Of a stretch of 64,000 bases of DNA, positions 1 to 9,634 are shown piece after piece. Location: the NCBI RefSeq assembly GCF_003334385.1, contig NZ_QOWN01000010.1. One strand, given 5' to 3'. The translations under genes were made by a program, and so were the position numbers. The stretch comes from Escherichia coli. GTDB taxonomy: Bacteria; Pseudomonadota; Gammaproteobacteria; Enterobacterales; Enterobacteriaceae. Under the pieces are notes generated by a model. The model made no database searches, was not told the DNA's origin, and saw only the letters and a program-made list of their open reading frames with translations. How positions within the stretch are numbered: the first letter of the stretch is position 1; every line of letters starts with the position of its first letter.

Positions 1-1
1 A

Positions 2-64
2 ACGCGAGGCATCGTCTTAACGAGGCACCGAGGCGTCGCATTCTTCAGATGGTTCAACCCTTAA
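2..64 (+). CDS. Possible 3' end of an upstream gene entering the window (partial; dmsC expected here by K-12 synteny)
   Basis: Frame 2 is open from the window edge to TAA at 62-64 (…GIVLTRHRGVAFFRWFNP*); identity not verifiable from 21 codons. Confidence 0.25.
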   Translation, partial: TRGIVLTRHRGVAFFRWFNP

Positions 65-98
65 GTTAGCGCTTATGGGTTTCGGCCCCGGTTCTCTT

Positions 99-725
99 TT
101 ATTTCTGCTTCGTTAACGTGTCATAACTGGTCATCAAATTACGATAATCAGGAATGTGGTTAGAGAACAACGTCGCCAGTCCTTCAATATCATTACGCCA
201 GTCGCGATGCAGCTCGCACGCCACGCCGAACCATGTCATCAATTGCGCACCAGCTTGCGACAAGCGATCCCATGCCGAATGCCGGGTAATTTCATTAAAG
301 GTCCCTGACGCGTCAGTCACGACAAAGACGTCAAACCCTTCTTCAATGGCTGAAAGCGCCGGGAATGCCACGCAAACTTCGGTTACCACACCGGCAATAA
401 TTAACTGTTTTTTACCTGTCGCTTTGACAGCTTTTACAAAATCTTCGTTATCCCAGGCGTTAATATTTCCCGGGCGAGCAATGTAAGGTGTATCGGGGAA
501 TTGTGCTTTCAGTTCTGGAACTAATGGGCCGTTAGGACCGGTTTCAAAACTGGTGGTAAGAATAGTTGGTAAGTTGAAATACTTAGCCAGGTCACCCAGC
601 GCCAGCACGTTATTTTTAAACTTATCGGGTTCGATATCCCGTACAAGGGAAAGTAAACCAGCCTGGTGATCAACAAGCAAAACGGCAGCATCATTTTTAT
701 CAAGACGAACATACGGTTTGGTCAT
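99..725 (-). CDS. ycaC: Isochorismatase-family hydrolase YcaC
   Basis: 208-aa ORF; cysteine-hydrolase fold motifs (LLVDHQ, VTEVCVAFP); synteny. Confidence 0.9.
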   Translation of the reverse strand: MTKPYVRLDKNDAAVLLVDHQAGLLSLVRDIEPDKFKNNVLALGDLAKYFNLPTILTTSFETGPNGPLVPELKAQFPDTPYIARPGNINAWDNEDFVKAVKATGKKQLIIAGVVTEVCVAFPALSAIEEGFDVFVVTDASGTFNEITRHSAWDRLSQAGAQLMTWFGVACELHRDWRNDIEGLATLFSNHIPDYRNLMTSYDTLTKQK

Positions 726-1038
726 CCTCTTCTCCTTTCGAGAGTCAGTGGTACGTCTGAAATCGATCAGACGCGATGCATTGCTCTGAAAGCATAGACG
801 GGAAATATGAGTTTGCTGTGACCATGAAATTTTTCGACTGAACGAAGCGTATGAAATTTGTGTTAGTTCAATAAAAACAATCAGATGAGACTAATCATCT
901 CTTCAGCATTAGCGTTATGAATGAGTAATATAAATCGATAATACCGCCGCTGGGATATCGCGTATTTTCACCCATTGACAATGTTTTTGGCGGTGGCATG
1001 ATGCGCATGAAATTTGAACTTCCTCACGGTTTTAATTC

Positions 1039-2187
1039 ATGTCCACGTATACCCAGCCTGTCATGCTTTTGCTGTCTGGCCTGCTTTTGTTGACTCTGGC
1101 GATTGCGGTGTTAAATACACTCGTGCCGCTTTGGCTCGCCCAGGAACACATGTCCACATGGCAGGTAGGCGTTGTCAGCTCATCCTATTTTACCGGCAAC
1201 CTTGTCGGTACATTGCTGACAGGGTATGTCATTAAGCGCATTGGCTTTAACCGCAGCTATTATCTGGCCTCCTTCATTTTTGCCGCTGGCTGTGCCGGCC
1301 TTGGCCTGATGATTGGATTCTGGAGCTGGTTGGCTTGGCGTTTTGTCGCGGGCGTCGGCTGTGCCATGATTTGGGTGGTTGTTGAGAGCGCGCTGATGTG
1401 CAGTGGGACGTCACGTAACCGTGGGCGTTTGCTTGCTGCGTATATGATGGTTTATTACGTGGGAACGTTTTTAGGCCAGTTACTGGTCAGCAAAGTTTCA
1501 ACCGAGCTGATGTCCGTATTGCCGTGGGTTACAGGTTTGACGTTGGCAGGGATCTTACCGCTGTTGTTTACGCGTGTGCTGAATCAGCAGGCTGAAAACC
1601 ATGATTCGACGTCAATTACGTCAATGCTAAAACTCCGTCAGGCGCGGCTTGGCGTGAATGGCTGCATTATCTCAGGAATCGTTCTGGGATCTCTATATGG
1701 CCTGATGCCGCTGTACCTCAATCACAAAGGGGTGAGCAATGCCAGCATTGGTTTCTGGATGGCGGTACTGGTCAGTGCGGGTATCCTTGGACAATGGCCG
1801 ATTGGACGTCTGGCGGATAAGTTTGGTCGACTGCTGGTGTTGCGTGTTCAGGTCTTTGTCGTCATTCTCGGCAGTATCGCGATGCTTAGCCAGGCGGCGA
1901 TGGCCCCAGCGTTATTCATCCTCGGTGCCGCTGGCTTTACGCTATATCCGGTGGCGATGGCATGGGCTTGCGAGAAAGTTGAACATCATCAACTGGTGGC
2001 GATGAACCAGGCCTTACTGTTGAGCTATACTGTGGGAAGTCTGCTTGGCCCGTCATTTACCGCTATGCTAATGCAGAATTTCTCCGATAATTTATTGTTT
2101 ATCATGATCGCCAGCGTATCGTTTATCTATTTGCTGATGCTGCTGCGCAACGCCGGTCATACGCCGAAACCCGTTGCTCACGTGTAA
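1039..2187 (+). CDS. ycaD: MFS-family transporter
   Basis: 382-aa highly hydrophobic ORF with multi-TM profile; synteny. Confidence 0.9.
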
Positions 2188-2396
2188 ATGAATTCAAGCA
2201 GAGTGTGAACTTACTGTTTCACACTCTGCTTTTTTGTTTCTTCTATCTGACTTGCTTTATTCCAAATTTTATTCGTTTAAAAATAAAATGTGCAGCAGGT
2301 TATAATTTTGCATTTCGCTATTTCCGCACTTCTTATTTGCCGCGCATAATCCCTCGTTTTACAGATGCCCCTTTAATTTTGGCGAAGGATTTGTCT

Positions 2397-3827
2397 ATGG
2401 CTGGGAATGTTCAGGAAAAACAGTTGCGATGGTACAACATTGCGCTGATGTCTTTTATCACTGTCTGGGGTTTTGGCAACGTTGTTAATAACTATGCCAA
2501 CCAGGGGCTGGTGGTTGTTTTTTCATGGGTGTTTATCTTTGCACTCTATTTCACACCTTATGCGCTAATTGTTGGTCAGTTAGGCTCGACCTTCAAAGAT
2601 GGGAAGGGCGGGGTCAGTACCTGGATTAAACACACGATGGGACCCGGACTGGCTTATCTCGCCGCGTGGACCTACTGGGTGGTGCATATTCCCTATCTGG
2701 CACAAAAACCCCAGGCAATTCTGATTGCGCTCGGTTGGGCGATGAAAGGCGACGGTTCGCTAATCAAAGAATATTCAGTCGTAGCGTTACAGGGGTTAAC
2801 GCTGGTGCTGTTTATCTTCTTTATGTGGGTTGCTTCACGCGGTATGAAATCGCTGAAAATCGTCGGTTCTGTGGCAGGGATTGCTATGTTTGTTATGTCG
2901 CTCCTGTATGTGGCGATGGCGGTAACCGCGCCTGCAATTACTGAAGTGCATATTGCGACCACAAACATTACCTGGGAAACGTTCATTCCTCATATCGACT
3001 TTACCTACATTACCACTATTTCAATGCTGGTTTTCGCGGTTGGCGGAGCAGAGAAGATTTCTCCTTACGTTAATCAAACGCGCAACCCAGGAAAAGAATT
3101 TCCAAAAGGGATGTTATGCCTGGCGGTGATGGTTGCGGTTTGTGCCATTCTGGGCTCGCTGGCGATGGGGATGATGTTTGATTCGCGTAATATCCCGGAT
3201 GACTTAATGACCAACGGTCAGTATTACGCCTTTCAGAAGCTGGGCGAGTATTACAACATGGGTAATACTTTAATGGTGATTTACGCCATTGCGAATACCC
3301 TGGGACAAGTAGCGGCGCTGGTATTCTCGATTGATGCCCCGCTTAAAGTGCTATTAGGTGATGCTGACAGCAAATATATTCCAGCCAGTTTATGTCGTAC
3401 CAACGCTTCTGGTACGCCCGTTAATGGCTATTTTCTGACCCTGGTACTGGTGGCGATTCTGATTATGCTGCCGACTCTCGGCATTGGTGATATGAACAAT
3501 CTCTATAAATGGCTGTTGAACCTTAATTCGGTAGTGATGCCGCTGCGTTATTTATGGGTATTTGTTGCATTTATTGCAGTCGTTCGCTTGGCGCAGAAAT
3601 ATAAACCAGAATATGTCTTTATTCGTAATAAGCCTCTGGCAATGACCGTCGGGATTTGGTGTTTTGCCTTTACCGCCTTTGCCTGTTTGACGGGGATCTT
3701 CCCGAAAATGGAAGCCTTCACTGCAGAGTGGACCTTCCAGTTGGCGCTGAATGTTGCAACGCCGTTTGTGCTGGTAGGATTAGGACTGATATTCCCGCTG
3801 CTGGCGCGTAAAGCGAATAGTAAATAA
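2397..3827 (+). CDS. ycaM: Putative APC-family inner-membrane transporter
   Basis: ORF track gives 540 aa from 2205; internal ATG at 2397 (MAGNVQEK…) gives the expected 476-aa product; hydrophobic. Confidence 0.85.
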   Translation: MAGNVQEKQLRWYNIALMSFITVWGFGNVVNNYANQGLVVVFSWVFIFALYFTPYALIVGQLGSTFKDGKGGVSTWIKHTMGPGLAYLAAWTYWVVHIPYLAQKPQAILIALGWAMKGDGSLIKEYSVVALQGLTLVLFIFFMWVASRGMKSLKIVGSVAGIAMFVMSLLYVAMAVTAPAITEVHIATTNITWETFIPHIDFTYITTISMLVFAVGGAEKISPYVNQTRNPGKEFPKGMLCLAVMVAVCAILGSLAMGMMFDSRNIPDDLMTNGQYYAFQKLGEYYNMGNTLMVIYAIANTLGQVAALVFSIDAPLKVLLGDADSKYIPASLCRTNASGTPVNGYFLTLVLVAILIMLPTLGIGDMNNLYKWLLNLNSVVMPLRYLWVFVAFIAVVRLAQKYKPEYVFIRNKPLAMTVGIWCFAFTAFACLTGIFPKMEAFTAEWTFQLALNVATPFVLVGLGLIFPLLARKANSK

Positions 3828-4736
3828 TTATTGTGGTCGGTGACGCTGACTCTGGCAGATCTGACCCGTTTTTACATAATCGAGAAATGCGCGCAAGCCG
3901 CAGGACATATACTGGCGGTTTGGATAATAGATCTGGAAGCCTGGACGCTCTGTGCTCCAGTCTTCCAGTACACATTCTAAACGACCAGTATCAAGGTACT
4001 CCTTGATCTGTTCATAGAGCAGATACCCGATACCAGCACCCATCAAAACGGCCTCCAGTTCAGCATCAACATCATCCAGAATGATATTTCCTGCGACAGC
4101 AATTTCCAGCTCCTTTGCAAATTGCCAGTGGAAAGGTTTGCCGCTGGGATAACGAAAAACAACACATTGATGATTAAGCAGATCATGAGGATGGCGGGGT
4201 TTGCCATATCTTGCAAAGTACTCTGGCGTTGCTGCTACACATAATTTCACTGGCGGGCCGATCGCCACGCTGATCATATCTTTTTCGACGATGCAACTAA
4301 GTCGAACGCCAGCGTCAAAGCCCTGTTGGACGATATCGACAAGAGAGTCGTCAGTTGTGAGCTCGACTTTAATATCAGGATATTCACGTGTGAAACCAAC
4401 CAGTAAAGACATTAAAAATATACGTGCAGCTACCCGGGCGGCATTGATTTTGAGCGTTCCTGTCGGTGTCAGACGAAAATCATTCATCTCATCTAACATG
4501 ATCTGAATTTCGTCGAAAGCTGGGCGCAATCGTTCATAGAGATTAGAACCCGCTTCCGTTAACGATACGCTTCGGGTTGTCCGATTGAATAAGCGAATTT
4601 TAAGACGTTGTTCCAGTGTTTTAATACTATGGCTAATGGCGGACGAGGATAAGCCTAACTCATCGCCCGCTGCACGAAAGCTTTGATTACGGGCCACGGC
4701 AAAGAAAGTGGCAAAGTCAGACATATTCATCCGCAT
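3828..4736 (-). CDS. ycaN: LysR-family transcriptional regulator
   Basis: 302 aa; N-terminal LysR HTH (FRAAGDELGLSSSAISHSIKTLEQRL); divergent from ycaK. Confidence 0.9.
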   Translation of the reverse strand: MRMNMSDFATFFAVARNQSFRAAGDELGLSSSAISHSIKTLEQRLKIRLFNRTTRSVSLTEAGSNLYERLRPAFDEIQIMLDEMNDFRLTPTGTLKINAARVAARIFLMSLLVGFTREYPDIKVELTTDDSLVDIVQQGFDAGVRLSCIVEKDMISVAIGPPVKLCVAATPEYFARYGKPRHPHDLLNHQCVVFRYPSGKPFHWQFAKELEIAVAGNIILDDVDAELEAVLMGAGIGYLLYEQIKEYLDTGRLECVLEDWSTERPGFQIYYPNRQYMSCGLRAFLDYVKTGQICQSQRHRPQ

Positions 4737-4835
4737 TAGTGAAAATCCTTCATTAACTCATCCTGAATCATCACGTTTACAGGATTATGCCGCCTGCGTA
4801 AAGTGCGCTCCAGAACTTAACGTGGAGGTAAAATT

Positions 4836-5426
4836 ATGCAGTCTGAACGTATTTATTTGGTATGGGCCCATCCTCGTCATGATTCATTGACCGCACATAT
4901 TGCTGATGCGATCCATCAGCGGGCAATGGAGCGGAAAATACAGGTGACGGAACTCGATTTATATCGGCGTAATTTCAACCCAGTGATGACGCCGGAAGAT
5001 GAACCAGACTGGAAGAATATGGATAAACGTTATTCTCCAGAGGTTCATCAGCTTTATTCAGAGCTGCTTGAACATGACACGTTAGTGGTGGTTTTTCCTC
5101 TCTGGTGGTACAGCTTCCCGGCAATGCTAAAAGGATATATTGACAGAGTATGGAATAATGGGCTGGCTTATGGAGATGGGCACAAATTACCATTCAATAA
5201 AGTTCGTTGGGTGGCGCTGGTTGGAGGAGACAAAGAATCATTTGTCCAGATGGGCTGGGAAAAAAATATAAGCGATTATTTAAAAAATATGTGCAGTTAT
5301 CTTGGTATTGAAGATGCCGATGTCACTTTCTTGTGTAATACAGTGGTATTCGATGGGGAAGAACTTCACGCGAGCTATTATCAGTCGTTATTATCTCAGG
5401 TACGGGATATGGTAGATGCACTATAA
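4836..5426 (+). CDS. ycaK: Flavodoxin-like NAD(P)H dehydrogenase (quinone) family protein (KefF/MdaB-like)
   Basis: 196-aa ORF with flavodoxin-like fold signature (VWAHPRHDS, FPLWWYSFPAMLKGYIDRV). Confidence 0.85.
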   Translation: MQSERIYLVWAHPRHDSLTAHIADAIHQRAMERKIQVTELDLYRRNFNPVMTPEDEPDWKNMDKRYSPEVHQLYSELLEHDTLVVVFPLWWYSFPAMLKGYIDRVWNNGLAYGDGHKLPFNKVRWVALVGGDKESFVQMGWEKNISDYLKNMCSYLGIEDADVTFLCNTVVFDGEELHASYYQSLLSQVRDMVDAL

Positions 5427-5469
5427 GATGTGTTAAAAACGCTGTAGCAGAATGAAGCGCGGAATAAAA

Positions 5470-5497
5470 AAGCGGCAACTCAATAAAGTTGCCGCTT
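5470..5497. terminator. Bidirectional terminator between convergent ycaK and pflA
   Basis: A-run, AAGCGGCAACT-caataa-AGTTGCCGCTT, then T-run. Confidence 0.65.
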
Positions 5498-5507
5498 TAC
5501 GGGGAAA

Positions 5508-6248
5508 TTAGAACATTACCTTATGACCGTACTGCTCAAGAATGCCTTTCACGCGTTCCATGGTCTCTTTCTTCGGTGGTTTAACACCGTCGAGTTTGTA
5601 CTCTTCACCCATTGCCACCCATTTGTGTTTGCCCAGCTCGTGGTAGGGGAGAAGCTCGATTTTCTCAACGTTGCCCATATCACGGGTAAATTCACCGAGG
5701 CGATGCGCTGAATCGTCATCGTCAGACCAGCCTGGGACAACAACGTAGCGGATCCACACCTTCACATTTTTGTTCGCCAGATATTTAGCGAACTCCAGCG
5801 TGCGGTGGTTGGAAACTCCAACCAGATTTTGGTGGATCTCGTCGTTCATCTGTTTGAGATCGAGCATTACCAGGTCGGTTACTTCCAGCAGTTCATCAAT
5901 CACCGGATCGTAACGACGAACAAAACCGTTGGTGTCCAGACAGGTATGAATGCCTTCTTTTTTGCAGGCGCGGAACCAGTCACGAACAAACTCAGCTTGC
6001 AGGATTGCTTCACCGCCGGATGCGGTAACGCCGCCGCCGGAAGCGTTCATAAAGTGGCGATAGGTCACCACTTCCTTCATCAAATCTTCAACGGTAACTT
6101 CTTTACCGCCATGCGTGTCCCAGGTGTCGCGGTTATGACAATACAGGCAGCGCATCAGGCAGCCCTGGAAAAAGGTGATAAAGCGAATACCTGGGCCGTC
6201 TACGGTTCCACAGGATTCAAAGGAGTGAATGCGACCAATAACTGACAT
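5508..6248 (-). CDS. pflA: Pyruvate formate-lyase activating enzyme (radical SAM)
   Basis: CxxxCxxC radical-SAM motif ([10 protein letters not shown]); start taken at [10 protein letters not shown] (246 aa) rather than the ORF-track extension. Confidence 0.95.
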
Positions 6249-6371
6249 TGCGGTGTTTCTCCAGATGTGGCCCATCTGAGGCCGTGTTGGTGCGCAGCTC
6301 GAAGGCTACGTCGAGTCTGTTTTGGCAGTCACCTTAAAGTATAGATAGCTGACAAAAAAGGCTCTCGCGCT

Positions 6372-6397
6372 AAAAAAGGCCCCACTTTCGTGGAGCC
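6372..6397 (-). terminator. pflB intrinsic terminator
   Basis: Minus strand reads GGCTCCAC-gaaa-GTGGGGCC followed by UUUUUU (plus-strand A6 at 6372-6377). Confidence 0.65.
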
Positions 6398-6439
6398 TTT
6401 ATTGTACGCTTTTTACTGTACGATTTCAGTCAAATCTAA

Positions 6440-8722
<2,283 letters not shown>

Positions 8723-8776: not shown

Positions 8777-9634
8777 TTAATGGTGGTCGTTTTCACGCAG
8801 GTAAATGACCCAGTATGTCAACCCAACCAACAAACCACCACCGATAATGTTGCCGATCGTAACCGGAATCAGGTTATCAGTGATGAAATTCATCACGGTC
8901 AGGTGAGAAAAATTTTCCGGTGCAGAACCGACTGCGGTCCAAAATTCCGGGGATGCGAAGTCGCGGATTACAATACCCATCGGGATCATAAACATGTTTG
9001 CGATACTGTGCTCAAAACCGCTGGCAACAAACATCGCGACCGGCAGCACCATAATGAACGCTTTGTCCATCAGGCTGCGGCCAGAATAACTCATCCATAC
9101 TGCCAGACATACCATCAGGTTTGCCAGGATACCAAGACAGACGGCCTCAATAAAAGTATGGTGCACTTTGTGGTCGGCGGTTTGTAGGACGTTTAGTCCC
9201 CATTGACCATTTGCGGTCATATACTCGCCGGAAAGCCACATTAAAAGTACAAACAGCAGTGCGCCGACCAGGTTGCCAAAATAGACATTTAGCCAGTTTT
9301 TCGCCAACTGACCCCAGGTGATGCGCCCACTCGCCTTAGCAACAACAATCAACACGGTGGAAGTAAAGAGATCGGCTCCGCAGACAACACAAAGAATCAG
9401 CCCCAGAGAGAAGCAAATGCCGCCAACCAGTTTTGCCATGCCGAAGGGCATTGTGCCTGTGCCAGTGGTTGCTGTGATATAGAAGACGAATGCGATTGAG
9501 ATGAAAACACCGGCGGTAATCGCCAGATAGAAAGTCTTAAGCGGATGTTTCGTTGCTTTATAGACACCCGCCTCTTCGGCCACTTTGGCCATTGCAGCAG
9601 GAAGTAAAAGATCAAAAGGGTTGTCAGCTTTCAC
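8777..9634 (-). CDS. focA: Formate channel FocA (FNT family)
   Basis: Hydrophobic FNT-family ORF; 285-aa product if initiated at GTG (plus-strand CAC 9632-9634) giving (M)KADNPFDLL…; ORF-track extension to 9808 lies in the promoter region. Confidence 0.9.
   Translation of the reverse strand: MKADNPFDLLLPAAMAKVAEEAGVYKATKHPLKTFYLAITAGVFISIAFVFYITATTGTGTMPFGMAKLVGGICFSLGLILCVVCGADLFTSTVLIVVAKASGRITWGQLAKNWLNVYFGNLVGALLFVLLMWLSGEYMTANGQWGLNVLQTADHKVHHTFIEAVCLGILANLMVCLAVWMSYSGRSLMDKAFIMVLPVAMFVASGFEHSIANMFMIPMGIVIRDFASPEFWTAVGSAPENFSHLTVMNFITDNLIPVTIGNIIGGGLLVGLTYWVIYLRENDHH

Follow-up and report, generated by a model that had tools for sequence, protein, structure and literature searches.

The first kilobases of a 64,000-nucleotide stretch of Escherichia coli DNA (contig NZ_QOWN01000010.1; "the window" is this whole stretch) contain ycaN, the gene of a LysR-type regulator, and, transcribed divergently from it, ycaK, which codes for a flavodoxin-like homologue of NAD(P)H:quinone oxidoreductases. 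Our analysis indicates that these two genes and the spacer between them (approximately positions 3828-5460) probably make up a self-contained sensor/effector cassette, in which YcaN would activate ycaK from a conserved dyad in the spacer and YcaK would act as a quinone reductase. An earlier note, made from the letters of the window, had drawn the unit wider, as a four-gene module of ycaD, ycaM, ycaN and ycaK. Comparison gives strong support to its proposal of YcaN as the regulator of the divergent ycaK, through pairing in all loci compared, conservation of the spacer, the dyad, and joint loss of the two genes, whereas the grouping with ycaD and ycaM is unsupported; the latter two are neighbours of the cassette by position only.

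The pair was examined at ten loci from as many genera: Escherichia, Pseudocitrobacter, Hafnia, Limnobaculum, Rahnella, Cedecea, Salmonella (serovar Panama), Symbiopectobacterium, Kluyvera, and Gilliamella. At every one of them, a divergent YcaN orthologue is found 98-102 bp upstream of the YcaK orthologue. The highest-identity relatives of YcaK in a one-genome-per-species scan come from Limnobaculum and Rahnella, both with a full-length divergent YcaN about 100 bp upstream, and no closer relative was detected in the representative genomes of other species, taken one per species; the contexts of the YcaK orthologues from the seven remaining genera contain a divergent LysR gene every time. Identity is 57-76% for the YcaN orthologues and 49-69% for those of YcaK, i.e., the regulator is the better conserved of the two. 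The gene neighbourhoods of eight loci are unrelated, with flanks that include metE/metR, selAB and a glutathione S-transferase (GST) gene, proX, a PmrAB-like two-component system, fimbrial genes, uvrC, and an island with an HNH gene; the E. coli and Pseudocitrobacter pairs both reside in the ycaD-pflA interval, with different other neighbour genes. No accessory gene is conserved beside the cassette in the ten loci, as GST, NUDIX, EamA, choloylglycine-hydrolase-family (CBAH), proX, and PmrAB-like genes vary by genus. YcaK homologues that are more distant (at most 46% identity, largely from Paenibacillus) generally have no adjoining LysR gene detectable by tblastn with YcaN, the single match within 1 kb being at a Cohnella locus. 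Taken together with the joint loss described below, these comparisons support the view of ycaN and ycaK as a functional pair and a conserved two-gene cassette. In the Hafnia locus, which comes from a metagenome contig, two open reading frames (ORFs) stand in place of one for the ycaN orthologue, the first of 123 codons with the helix-turn-helix (HTH) and the other of 159 codons with the substrate domain (3016-3899 of that locus). Either a frameshift or an error of assembly accounts for the split, and ycaK and the spacer are intact.

Within E. coli, there is a clear presence/absence polymorphism of ycaN-ycaK. Among 5426 complete genomes surveyed, ycaD was found in all 5426, ycaM in 4372, and ycaN-ycaK in 3341, so that about 38% are without the pair. 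Three structural alleles account for nearly all variation in ycaM and ycaN-ycaK. Allele A (approximately 3341 genomes, with K-12 and ML35 as examples) has the full gene set of the window; allele B (1024 genomes, such as O157:H7 and O55:H7) consists of ycaD-ycaM, a remnant of ycaN, filler DNA, and pflA; and in allele C (1047 genomes, for example ST131) the terminator-like hairpins of ycaD and pflA lie within a few bases of each other. One identical deletion junction, common to all 1024 genomes of allele B, takes most of ycaN together with all of ycaK, leaving a 111-bp remnant of the ycaN 3'-end and approximately 40 bp of unmatched filler. The B2-type deletion has the ycaD hairpin as its left edge, and on the right flank the example of allele B is homologous again from 5452 onward, that of allele C from 5466. 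Since each junction is common to about 1000 genomes at 95% identity or more, it appears that each deletion happened once. The allele B filler (8903-8942 of locus L082) matches neither the full allele nor any compared locus, and the ycaN remnant beside it has 3 mismatches in 24 bp.

Coordinates of all features are collected in Table 1. Those of the genes are taken from the RefSeq annotation of an identical stretch in E. coli ML35 and converted to window numbering, the first 8 kb of the window being 100% identical to E. coli chromosomes. Together with the ORF list, which agrees with the annotation except for the start of ycaM, they confirm the places that the earlier note had given to the four genes.

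Table 1. Features of the ycaC-pflA region, in window numbering
Feature	Position	Strand	Basis
ycaC	99-725	-	RefSeq annotation (ML35)
Promoter-like site for ycaD: TTGACA, 16-nt spacer, CATGAT, with upstream TG	975-1002	+	Consensus scan, 10/12 matches; prediction
ycaD, transporter of the major facilitator superfamily (MFS), core gene outside the cassette	1039-2187	+	RefSeq annotation; NF002962
Intrinsic-terminator-like hairpin 3' of ycaD: perfect 14-bp stem, 8-nt loop, T run	2196-2231	+	Consensus scan; inverted-repeat search
Segment absent from allele C: ycaM, ycaN, ycaK	2238-5465		Locus comparison; junction in 1047/5426
Promoter-like site for ycaM	2277-2306	+	Consensus scan; prediction
ycaM, permease of the amino acid-polyamine-organocation (APC) superfamily, convergent with ycaN	2397-3827	+	RefSeq annotation; Pfam
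ycaN, LysR-type regulator, 302 residues	3828-4736	-	RefSeq annotation; Pfam
Segment deleted in allele B: most of ycaN, all of ycaK	3941-5451		Locus comparison; junction in 1024/5426 (19%)
ycaN-ycaK divergent control region, 99 bp	4737-4835		Spacer between annotated genes
T-N11-A dyad, proposed YcaN recognition site	4740-4752		Ten-genus alignment
Predicted ycaK promoter: -35 TTTACA (4776-4781), 17-nt spacer, -10 TAAAGT (4799-4804)	4776-4804	+	Consensus scan and ten-genus conservation
ycaK, flavodoxin-like NAD(P)H:quinone oxidoreductase homologue, 196 residues	4836-5426	+	Pfam Flavodoxin_2; NF007280
pflA terminator-like hairpin, near the right edge of the variable segment	5469-5498	-	Consensus scan
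pflA	5508-6248	-	RefSeq annotation (ML35)

The spacer between the divergent genes measures exactly 99 bp, as had been claimed, and its conservation goes far beyond neutral expectation. In pairwise comparisons of six genera with E. coli, identity of the spacer is 64-83%, against 29-55% for the saturated third codon positions of the two genes, which points to selection on the spacer. The ten-genus alignment contains a T-N11-A dyad, TGAAAATCCTTCA, which we propose as the recognition site of YcaN. Its extended form, TAGTGAA-N5-TTCATTA, spans 4737-4755; the half-sites TGAAA-N5-TCA are invariant in the ten genera, and the centre of the dyad varies. The extended pattern has one exact match in the window, at the ycaN-ycaK site, and the number of matches with one mismatch, seven against 5.3 expected, is that of chance, with none of them upstream of ycaC or ycaD. 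Two further conserved blocks, TTTACAG (4776-4782) and TAAAGT (4799-4804), contain the predicted -35 and -10 elements of ycaK, a pair that the consensus scan recovered on its own. With transcription assumed to begin some 7 nt past the -10 element, the start site of ycaK is predicted near 4811, and the centre of the dyad, at 4746, would lie at about -65 from it. In the canonical layout of LysR-type transcriptional regulators (LTTRs), the recognition site is near -65, and the activation site is by the -35 element (PMC2724274). The predicted geometry of the ycaN-ycaK spacer is of this canonical kind, with a divergent gene and a T-N11-A dyad near -65 of the putative ycaK promoter, as befits a LysR-type regulator and its target. 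A second, asymmetric T-N11-A candidate is found at 4753-4765.

On the other side, the dyad directly abuts the start codon of ycaN (4734-4736), which makes autorepression by YcaN plausible. A promoter of ycaN could not be placed in the spacer with confidence, as the minus-strand CATAAT at 4784-4789 is without a convincing -35 element, and likewise no clear ycaN promoter was reported in PMC9308461. The ycaK gene has a Shine-Dalgarno sequence, GGAGG, at 4824-4828. An Rfam scan of positions 1-6500 gave nothing credible, both matches being far below the gathering scores. There is no T-rich terminator of its own behind ycaK (5427-5507), where the only hairpin is that oriented for pflA.

YcaN has the domain structure of a LysR-type regulator, with N-terminal HTH_1 at residues 7-63 (E 2e-20) and C-terminal LysR_substrate at residues 91-290 (E 8e-33) of its 302 residues, both by Pfam. 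No cysteine is invariant across YcaN orthologues, which favours binding of a ligand over sensing through thiols; the thiol-based quinone sensing that we considered was rejected on the same ground. YcaK is a member of the Flavodoxin_2 family (PF02525, E 4e-40) and scores 354 bits with the NCBIfam equivalog NF007280, cut-off 162; its nearest solved relatives by sequence are 4R81, 3LCM, NQO1 and NQO2. There is no solved structure of YcaK itself. An AlphaFold model built on 21 orthologues (predicted local distance difference test, pLDDT, 87.6; predicted template modelling score, pTM, 0.87) has a flavodoxin-like α/β fold, in line with the sequence-based membership. It superimposes on the archaeal NAD(P)H:quinone oxidoreductase of Methanothermobacter marburgensis (4R81) with a template modelling (TM) score of 0.85 and a root-mean-square deviation of 2.2 Å, and also matches the structures of NQO1, NQO2, 4GI5, 3LCM and AzoR. 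From the family and structural matches, we propose that YcaK, which has the fold of NQO1 and NQO2, is probably a flavin-dependent NAD(P)H:quinone oxidoreductase. Family labels given to all four proteins in the earlier note (MFS for YcaD, APC for YcaM, LysR for YcaN, and flavodoxin-like quinone reductase for YcaK) are upheld by Pfam and NCBIfam profiles, and its remark that a substrate is established for none of them agrees with the searchable literature.

Enzymes of the NQO1/NQO2 type (human NQO1 and NQO2, 4R81 of M. marburgensis, and Smu.1420 of Streptococcus mutans, 3LCM) share the fold with YcaK and all belong to Flavodoxin_2, the TM score with the NQO1/NQO2 chains listed being 0.73-0.81 when normalised by the query. 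However, sequence identity is 18-24%, and YcaK has 196 residues against approximately 273 in the solved NQO1 chains. In E. coli, KefF, KefG and AzoR are likewise flavodoxin-like NAD(P)H oxidoreductases, and are grouped with YcaK in libraries for nitroreductase and chromate-reductase work, but YcaK is under the family cut-offs of all three. In the same literature, as far as it was accessible, YcaK figures as a library member or as a gene deleted from the background. Deletions of ycaK and of mdaB are both tabulated for growth at MIC90 (the 90% minimal inhibitory concentration) of fluoxetine/amitriptyline in a screen for antidepressant tolerance (PMC9765716), a possible phenotypic link between two quinone reductase homologues. 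A survey by RIL-seq (RNA interaction by ligation and sequencing) lists 'ycaK.3UTR' as an RNA partner of the small RNA AceK-int.

The closest characterised analogue of the pair is found in Neisseria meningitidis, where the LTTR CrgA represses its own gene and activates the divergent mdaB, coding for an NADPH quinone oxidoreductase, via T-N11-A sites, and is induced indirectly by an electrophile, α-methylene-γ-butyrolactone (MBL) (PMC2724274). At the limit of 1e-20, YcaN has matches to five solved chains, CrgA (PDB 3HHG) among them with E 3e-29. The two systems are alike in that an LTTR gene is divergent from a quinone reductase gene across a short spacer with T-N11-A, and the -35 element to be regulated is beside the sites. 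MdaB, too, is flavodoxin-like, but YcaK is not its orthologue: it belongs to NF007280, and its seven NCBIfam matches at the default E-value include no MdaB model. YcaN and CrgA resemble each other at the family level only, and CrgA has two footprinted T-N11-A sites, whereas the ycaN-ycaK spacer has one clear dyad and the asymmetric candidate. Formation of octamers, induction by MBL, and footprinted binding belong to CrgA. With these differences in mind, the best-supported reading by analogy is that YcaN-YcaK would work like CrgA-MdaB. YcaN is proposed to bind the conserved dyad, whose centre is some 65 bp upstream of where ycaK transcription is predicted to start, and a small-molecule effector acting on YcaN would lead to activation of the weak sigma-70 promoter of ycaK (TTTACA/TAAAGT). 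The same binding would probably repress ycaN too, and YcaK most likely would carry out the two-electron reduction of electrophiles of the quinone-like, azo or nitro type.

Several points weigh against this reading. The -10 element TAAAGT fits the consensus at only four of six positions, and the start site is itself a prediction; the dyad overlaps the Shine-Dalgarno region of ycaN, so that its conservation could be partly translational; and the accessible portions of the oxidoreductase-library screens name no substrate of YcaK. LTTRs usually sit on their recognition sites even without inducer, and for this reason the silence of the published YcaN binding data counts mildly against the model: chromatin immunoprecipitation that includes an exonuclease step (ChIP-exo), performed in glucose M9 and with no inducer added, gave six sites with a signal-to-noise ratio of 1.06-4.45, none of them at ycaN-ycaK and none at ycaC-ycaD either. 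Peaks listed for unrelated regulators, however, coincide with no fewer than two of these sites (yihQ and ynjB), which suggests that this data set is background. The earlier note had named absence of YcaN binding at the spacer, together with absence of any ycaN-dependent change in ycaK expression, as grounds for giving up the idea, and the ChIP-exo data are too weak to count as such a refutation. RNA sequencing (RNA-seq) of a ycaN deletion strain, with threonine supplement and at an optical density (OD) of 2.0, found 702 differentially expressed genes, with a decrease for ycaC and an increase for ycaD and focA, and concluded that YcaN "regulates adjacent y-genes"; ycaK is not named among the changed genes in the available text of that report (PMC9068703). 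This is not decisive, because an inducer-dependent activator would leave ycaK unchanged in an uninduced deletion strain. Thus, the published ChIP-exo and RNA-seq data neither confirm nor refute the control of ycaK by YcaN.

The same expression data underlie the view that the true targets of YcaN are ycaC, ycaD and focA (Rodionova et al. 2022), ycaK not being a primary one. Apart from the changes in these three genes, a formate-utilisation phenotype speaks for it (PMC9068703), but the figure of 702 affected genes at OD 2.0 in the same source points to indirect effects, the ycaC-ycaD spacer is without the dyad pattern even at one mismatch and without a YcaN ChIP-exo peak, YcaN orthologues of eight other genera do not have these neighbours (Pseudocitrobacter alone keeps ycaD), and the 38% of E. 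coli genomes without ycaN retain ycaC, ycaD and focA, judging from three annotated examples and the ycaD count. We consider this view unlikely; the comparative evidence goes against ycaC, ycaD and focA as direct conserved targets, and the published assignment is probably indirect. About equally improbable is that the spacer is conserved merely for two overlapping promoters and 5' leaders, with YcaN acting elsewhere or inactive and ycaK constitutive or under another regulator such as Nac. Overlap of the dyad with the ribosome-binding region of ycaN, lack of a ChIP-exo signal at the locus, and the EcoCyc-based Nac predictions for ycaK, quoted in PMC9068703, speak for this. Yet it is the half-sites that are invariant, while the centre, which carries the Shine-Dalgarno sequence, varies, as fits a protein-binding dyad over a translation signal, and if the two were not functionally coupled, the strict pairing of regulator and enzyme in ten genera and in unrelated neighbourhoods would be difficult to account for.

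The four-gene module, in which the transporters would import a compound, YcaN would sense it, and YcaK would reduce it, can draw on the contiguity of the genes in E. coli of the K-12 type, on the rise of ycaD in the ycaN deletion strain (PMC9068703), and on the Pseudocitrobacter locus, the sole other one with the pair in the ycaD-pflA interval, where ycaD directly adjoins ycaN-ycaK, without ycaM. Against it, the four genes make up three transcription units, two on the plus strand and one on the minus strand, with a strong terminator-like hairpin 3' of ycaD and with ycaM convergent to ycaN, and their counts in E. coli are unequal (5426, 4372 and 3341 for ycaD, ycaM and the pair). Among the nine cassette loci outside E. 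coli, none has ycaM and one has ycaD, and a Salmonella enterica genome has the order dmsABC-ycaD-ycaM-pflA, at 77% DNA identity, without ycaN-ycaK. These distributions largely refute the module, and with it the combined import and detoxification function that the earlier note had suggested; we regard it as very unlikely. Still less credible is the idea that, instead of detoxifying, YcaK serves as a regulatory subunit in the manner of KefF or KefG, which would gate a membrane protein such as YcaM. Weak matches of YcaK to the KefF and KefG models (59 and 50.5 bits) and its match to the KefC-KefF fusion structure 3EYW (E 5e-8) hint in this direction, but the former fall far short of the respective cut-offs (210 and 240 bits), none of the ten cassettes has a Kef-type channel or a conserved membrane partner next to it, and the best structural matches of YcaK are free-standing quinone reductases.

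The neighbours themselves have histories of their own. YcaD scores 728 bits with the NCBIfam equivalog NF002962 for MFS transporters, cut-off 361. YcaM contains Pfam domains AA_permease_2 and AA_permease, and its scores are below the equivalog cut-offs for YjeM (161 bits against 400) and GadC (102 against 640), so that a place among the glutamate/GABA antiporters of the GadC or YjeM type is unsupported, and APC-superfamily membership alone is supported. A mechanical 540-codon ORF of ycaM from GTG 2205 was rejected as the start, as it crosses the terminator-like hairpin of ycaD; the annotated ATG at 2397 is preceded by an AAGGA Shine-Dalgarno sequence. The stop codons of the convergent ycaM and ycaN abut at 3827/3828, with zero intergenic bases and no terminator between them (3825-3830), and the two genes are catalogued as a convergent excludon, i.e., a pair with overlapping transcripts, in an RNA-seq survey published in 2025. 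What allele B retains of this overlap zone is exactly its first 111 bp. Because the S. enterica genome mentioned above has ycaD-ycaM-pflA without ycaN-ycaK, ycaM appears to be an old resident of the interval, independent of the cassette. The ycaM of this Salmonella genome is without an equivalent of window positions 3383-3536 (420 residues against 476; near position 5980 of locus L089), full-length Salmonella YcaM clusters are rare in the protein search, and the gene may be decaying there. Outside E. coli and a few Salmonella, the named relatives of YcaM among the 120 matches listed are from Firmicutes (Paenibacillus, Brevibacillus and Clostridium), at 63-71% identity, with no other Proteobacteria among these matches, and this suggests an old transfer across phyla into the Escherichia/Salmonella lineage. 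Neighbours of the gene in Clostridium (xanthine/uracil permease, GH113, LysR, YeiH-like and isocitrate-dehydrogenase-family genes) offered nothing coherent as to the substrate. In several E. coli strains, insertion sequences (IS1, IS5, IS903B, ISEc35 or ISVsa5) are found in or beside ycaM or ycaN, which is consistent with weak selection on both.

As for the origin of the cassette, two scenarios are open: it may be ancestral in the ycaD-pflA interval and repeatedly lost, or it may have entered this interval more than once. The ancestral scenario fits the Pseudocitrobacter copy at the same site, since its DNA identity to the E. coli cassette (74%) is similar to that of ycaD (76%). The content of the interval seems to vary from genus to genus; in Pseudocitrobacter, the gap between ycaK and pflA holds a CBAH gene and a second LysR regulator (4624-6685 of locus L085). 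Neither direct or inverted repeats flanking the cassette nor integrases marking it were found, and there is no credible plasmid carriage, as matches in the plasmid collection consist of non-mobilizable E. coli records and one irrelevant Vagococcus fragment. We read the E. coli records, several of which have chromosome size (0.7-4.9 Mb), as mislabelled chromosomal sequence. Only tentatively, and as a rather doubtful extension of the sensor/effector reading, ycaN-ycaK might be seen as a xenobiotic-response cassette that regulates itself and is portable, having been transferred or kept as a whole across Enterobacterales and lost from about 38% of E. coli by two ancient deletions. If so, its presence or absence would alter the handling by strains of redox-active compounds, such as plant and microbial quinones, nitroaromatic prodrugs and some drugs, and YcaN, as a specific ligand sensor, could serve as a biosensor.

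The ycaN-ycaK pair is an ordinary new example of the known design of an LTTR with a quinone reductase. What is new here, i.e., a precise predicted operator and promoter, the redefinition of the unit as two genes and not four, and the polymorphism within E. coli, is incremental, and its biological return stays modest unless the effector turns out to be of interest. One remaining uncharacterised LysR regulator of E. coli nevertheless gains a concrete predicted operator and promoter. The accessory status of this pair of K-12 y-genes matters for extrapolating K-12 results to other strains and is relevant where ycaK is deleted in making nitroreductase-free screening strains.

A last observation concerns the ycaC-ycaD spacer, which contains a 17-nt direct repeat at 844-860 and 1000-1016 (GAAGCGTATGAAATTTG and GATGCGCATGAAATTTG). 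The last bases of the predicted ycaD promoter are shared with the second copy, and the repeat could be either the site of a regulator or a product of chance.

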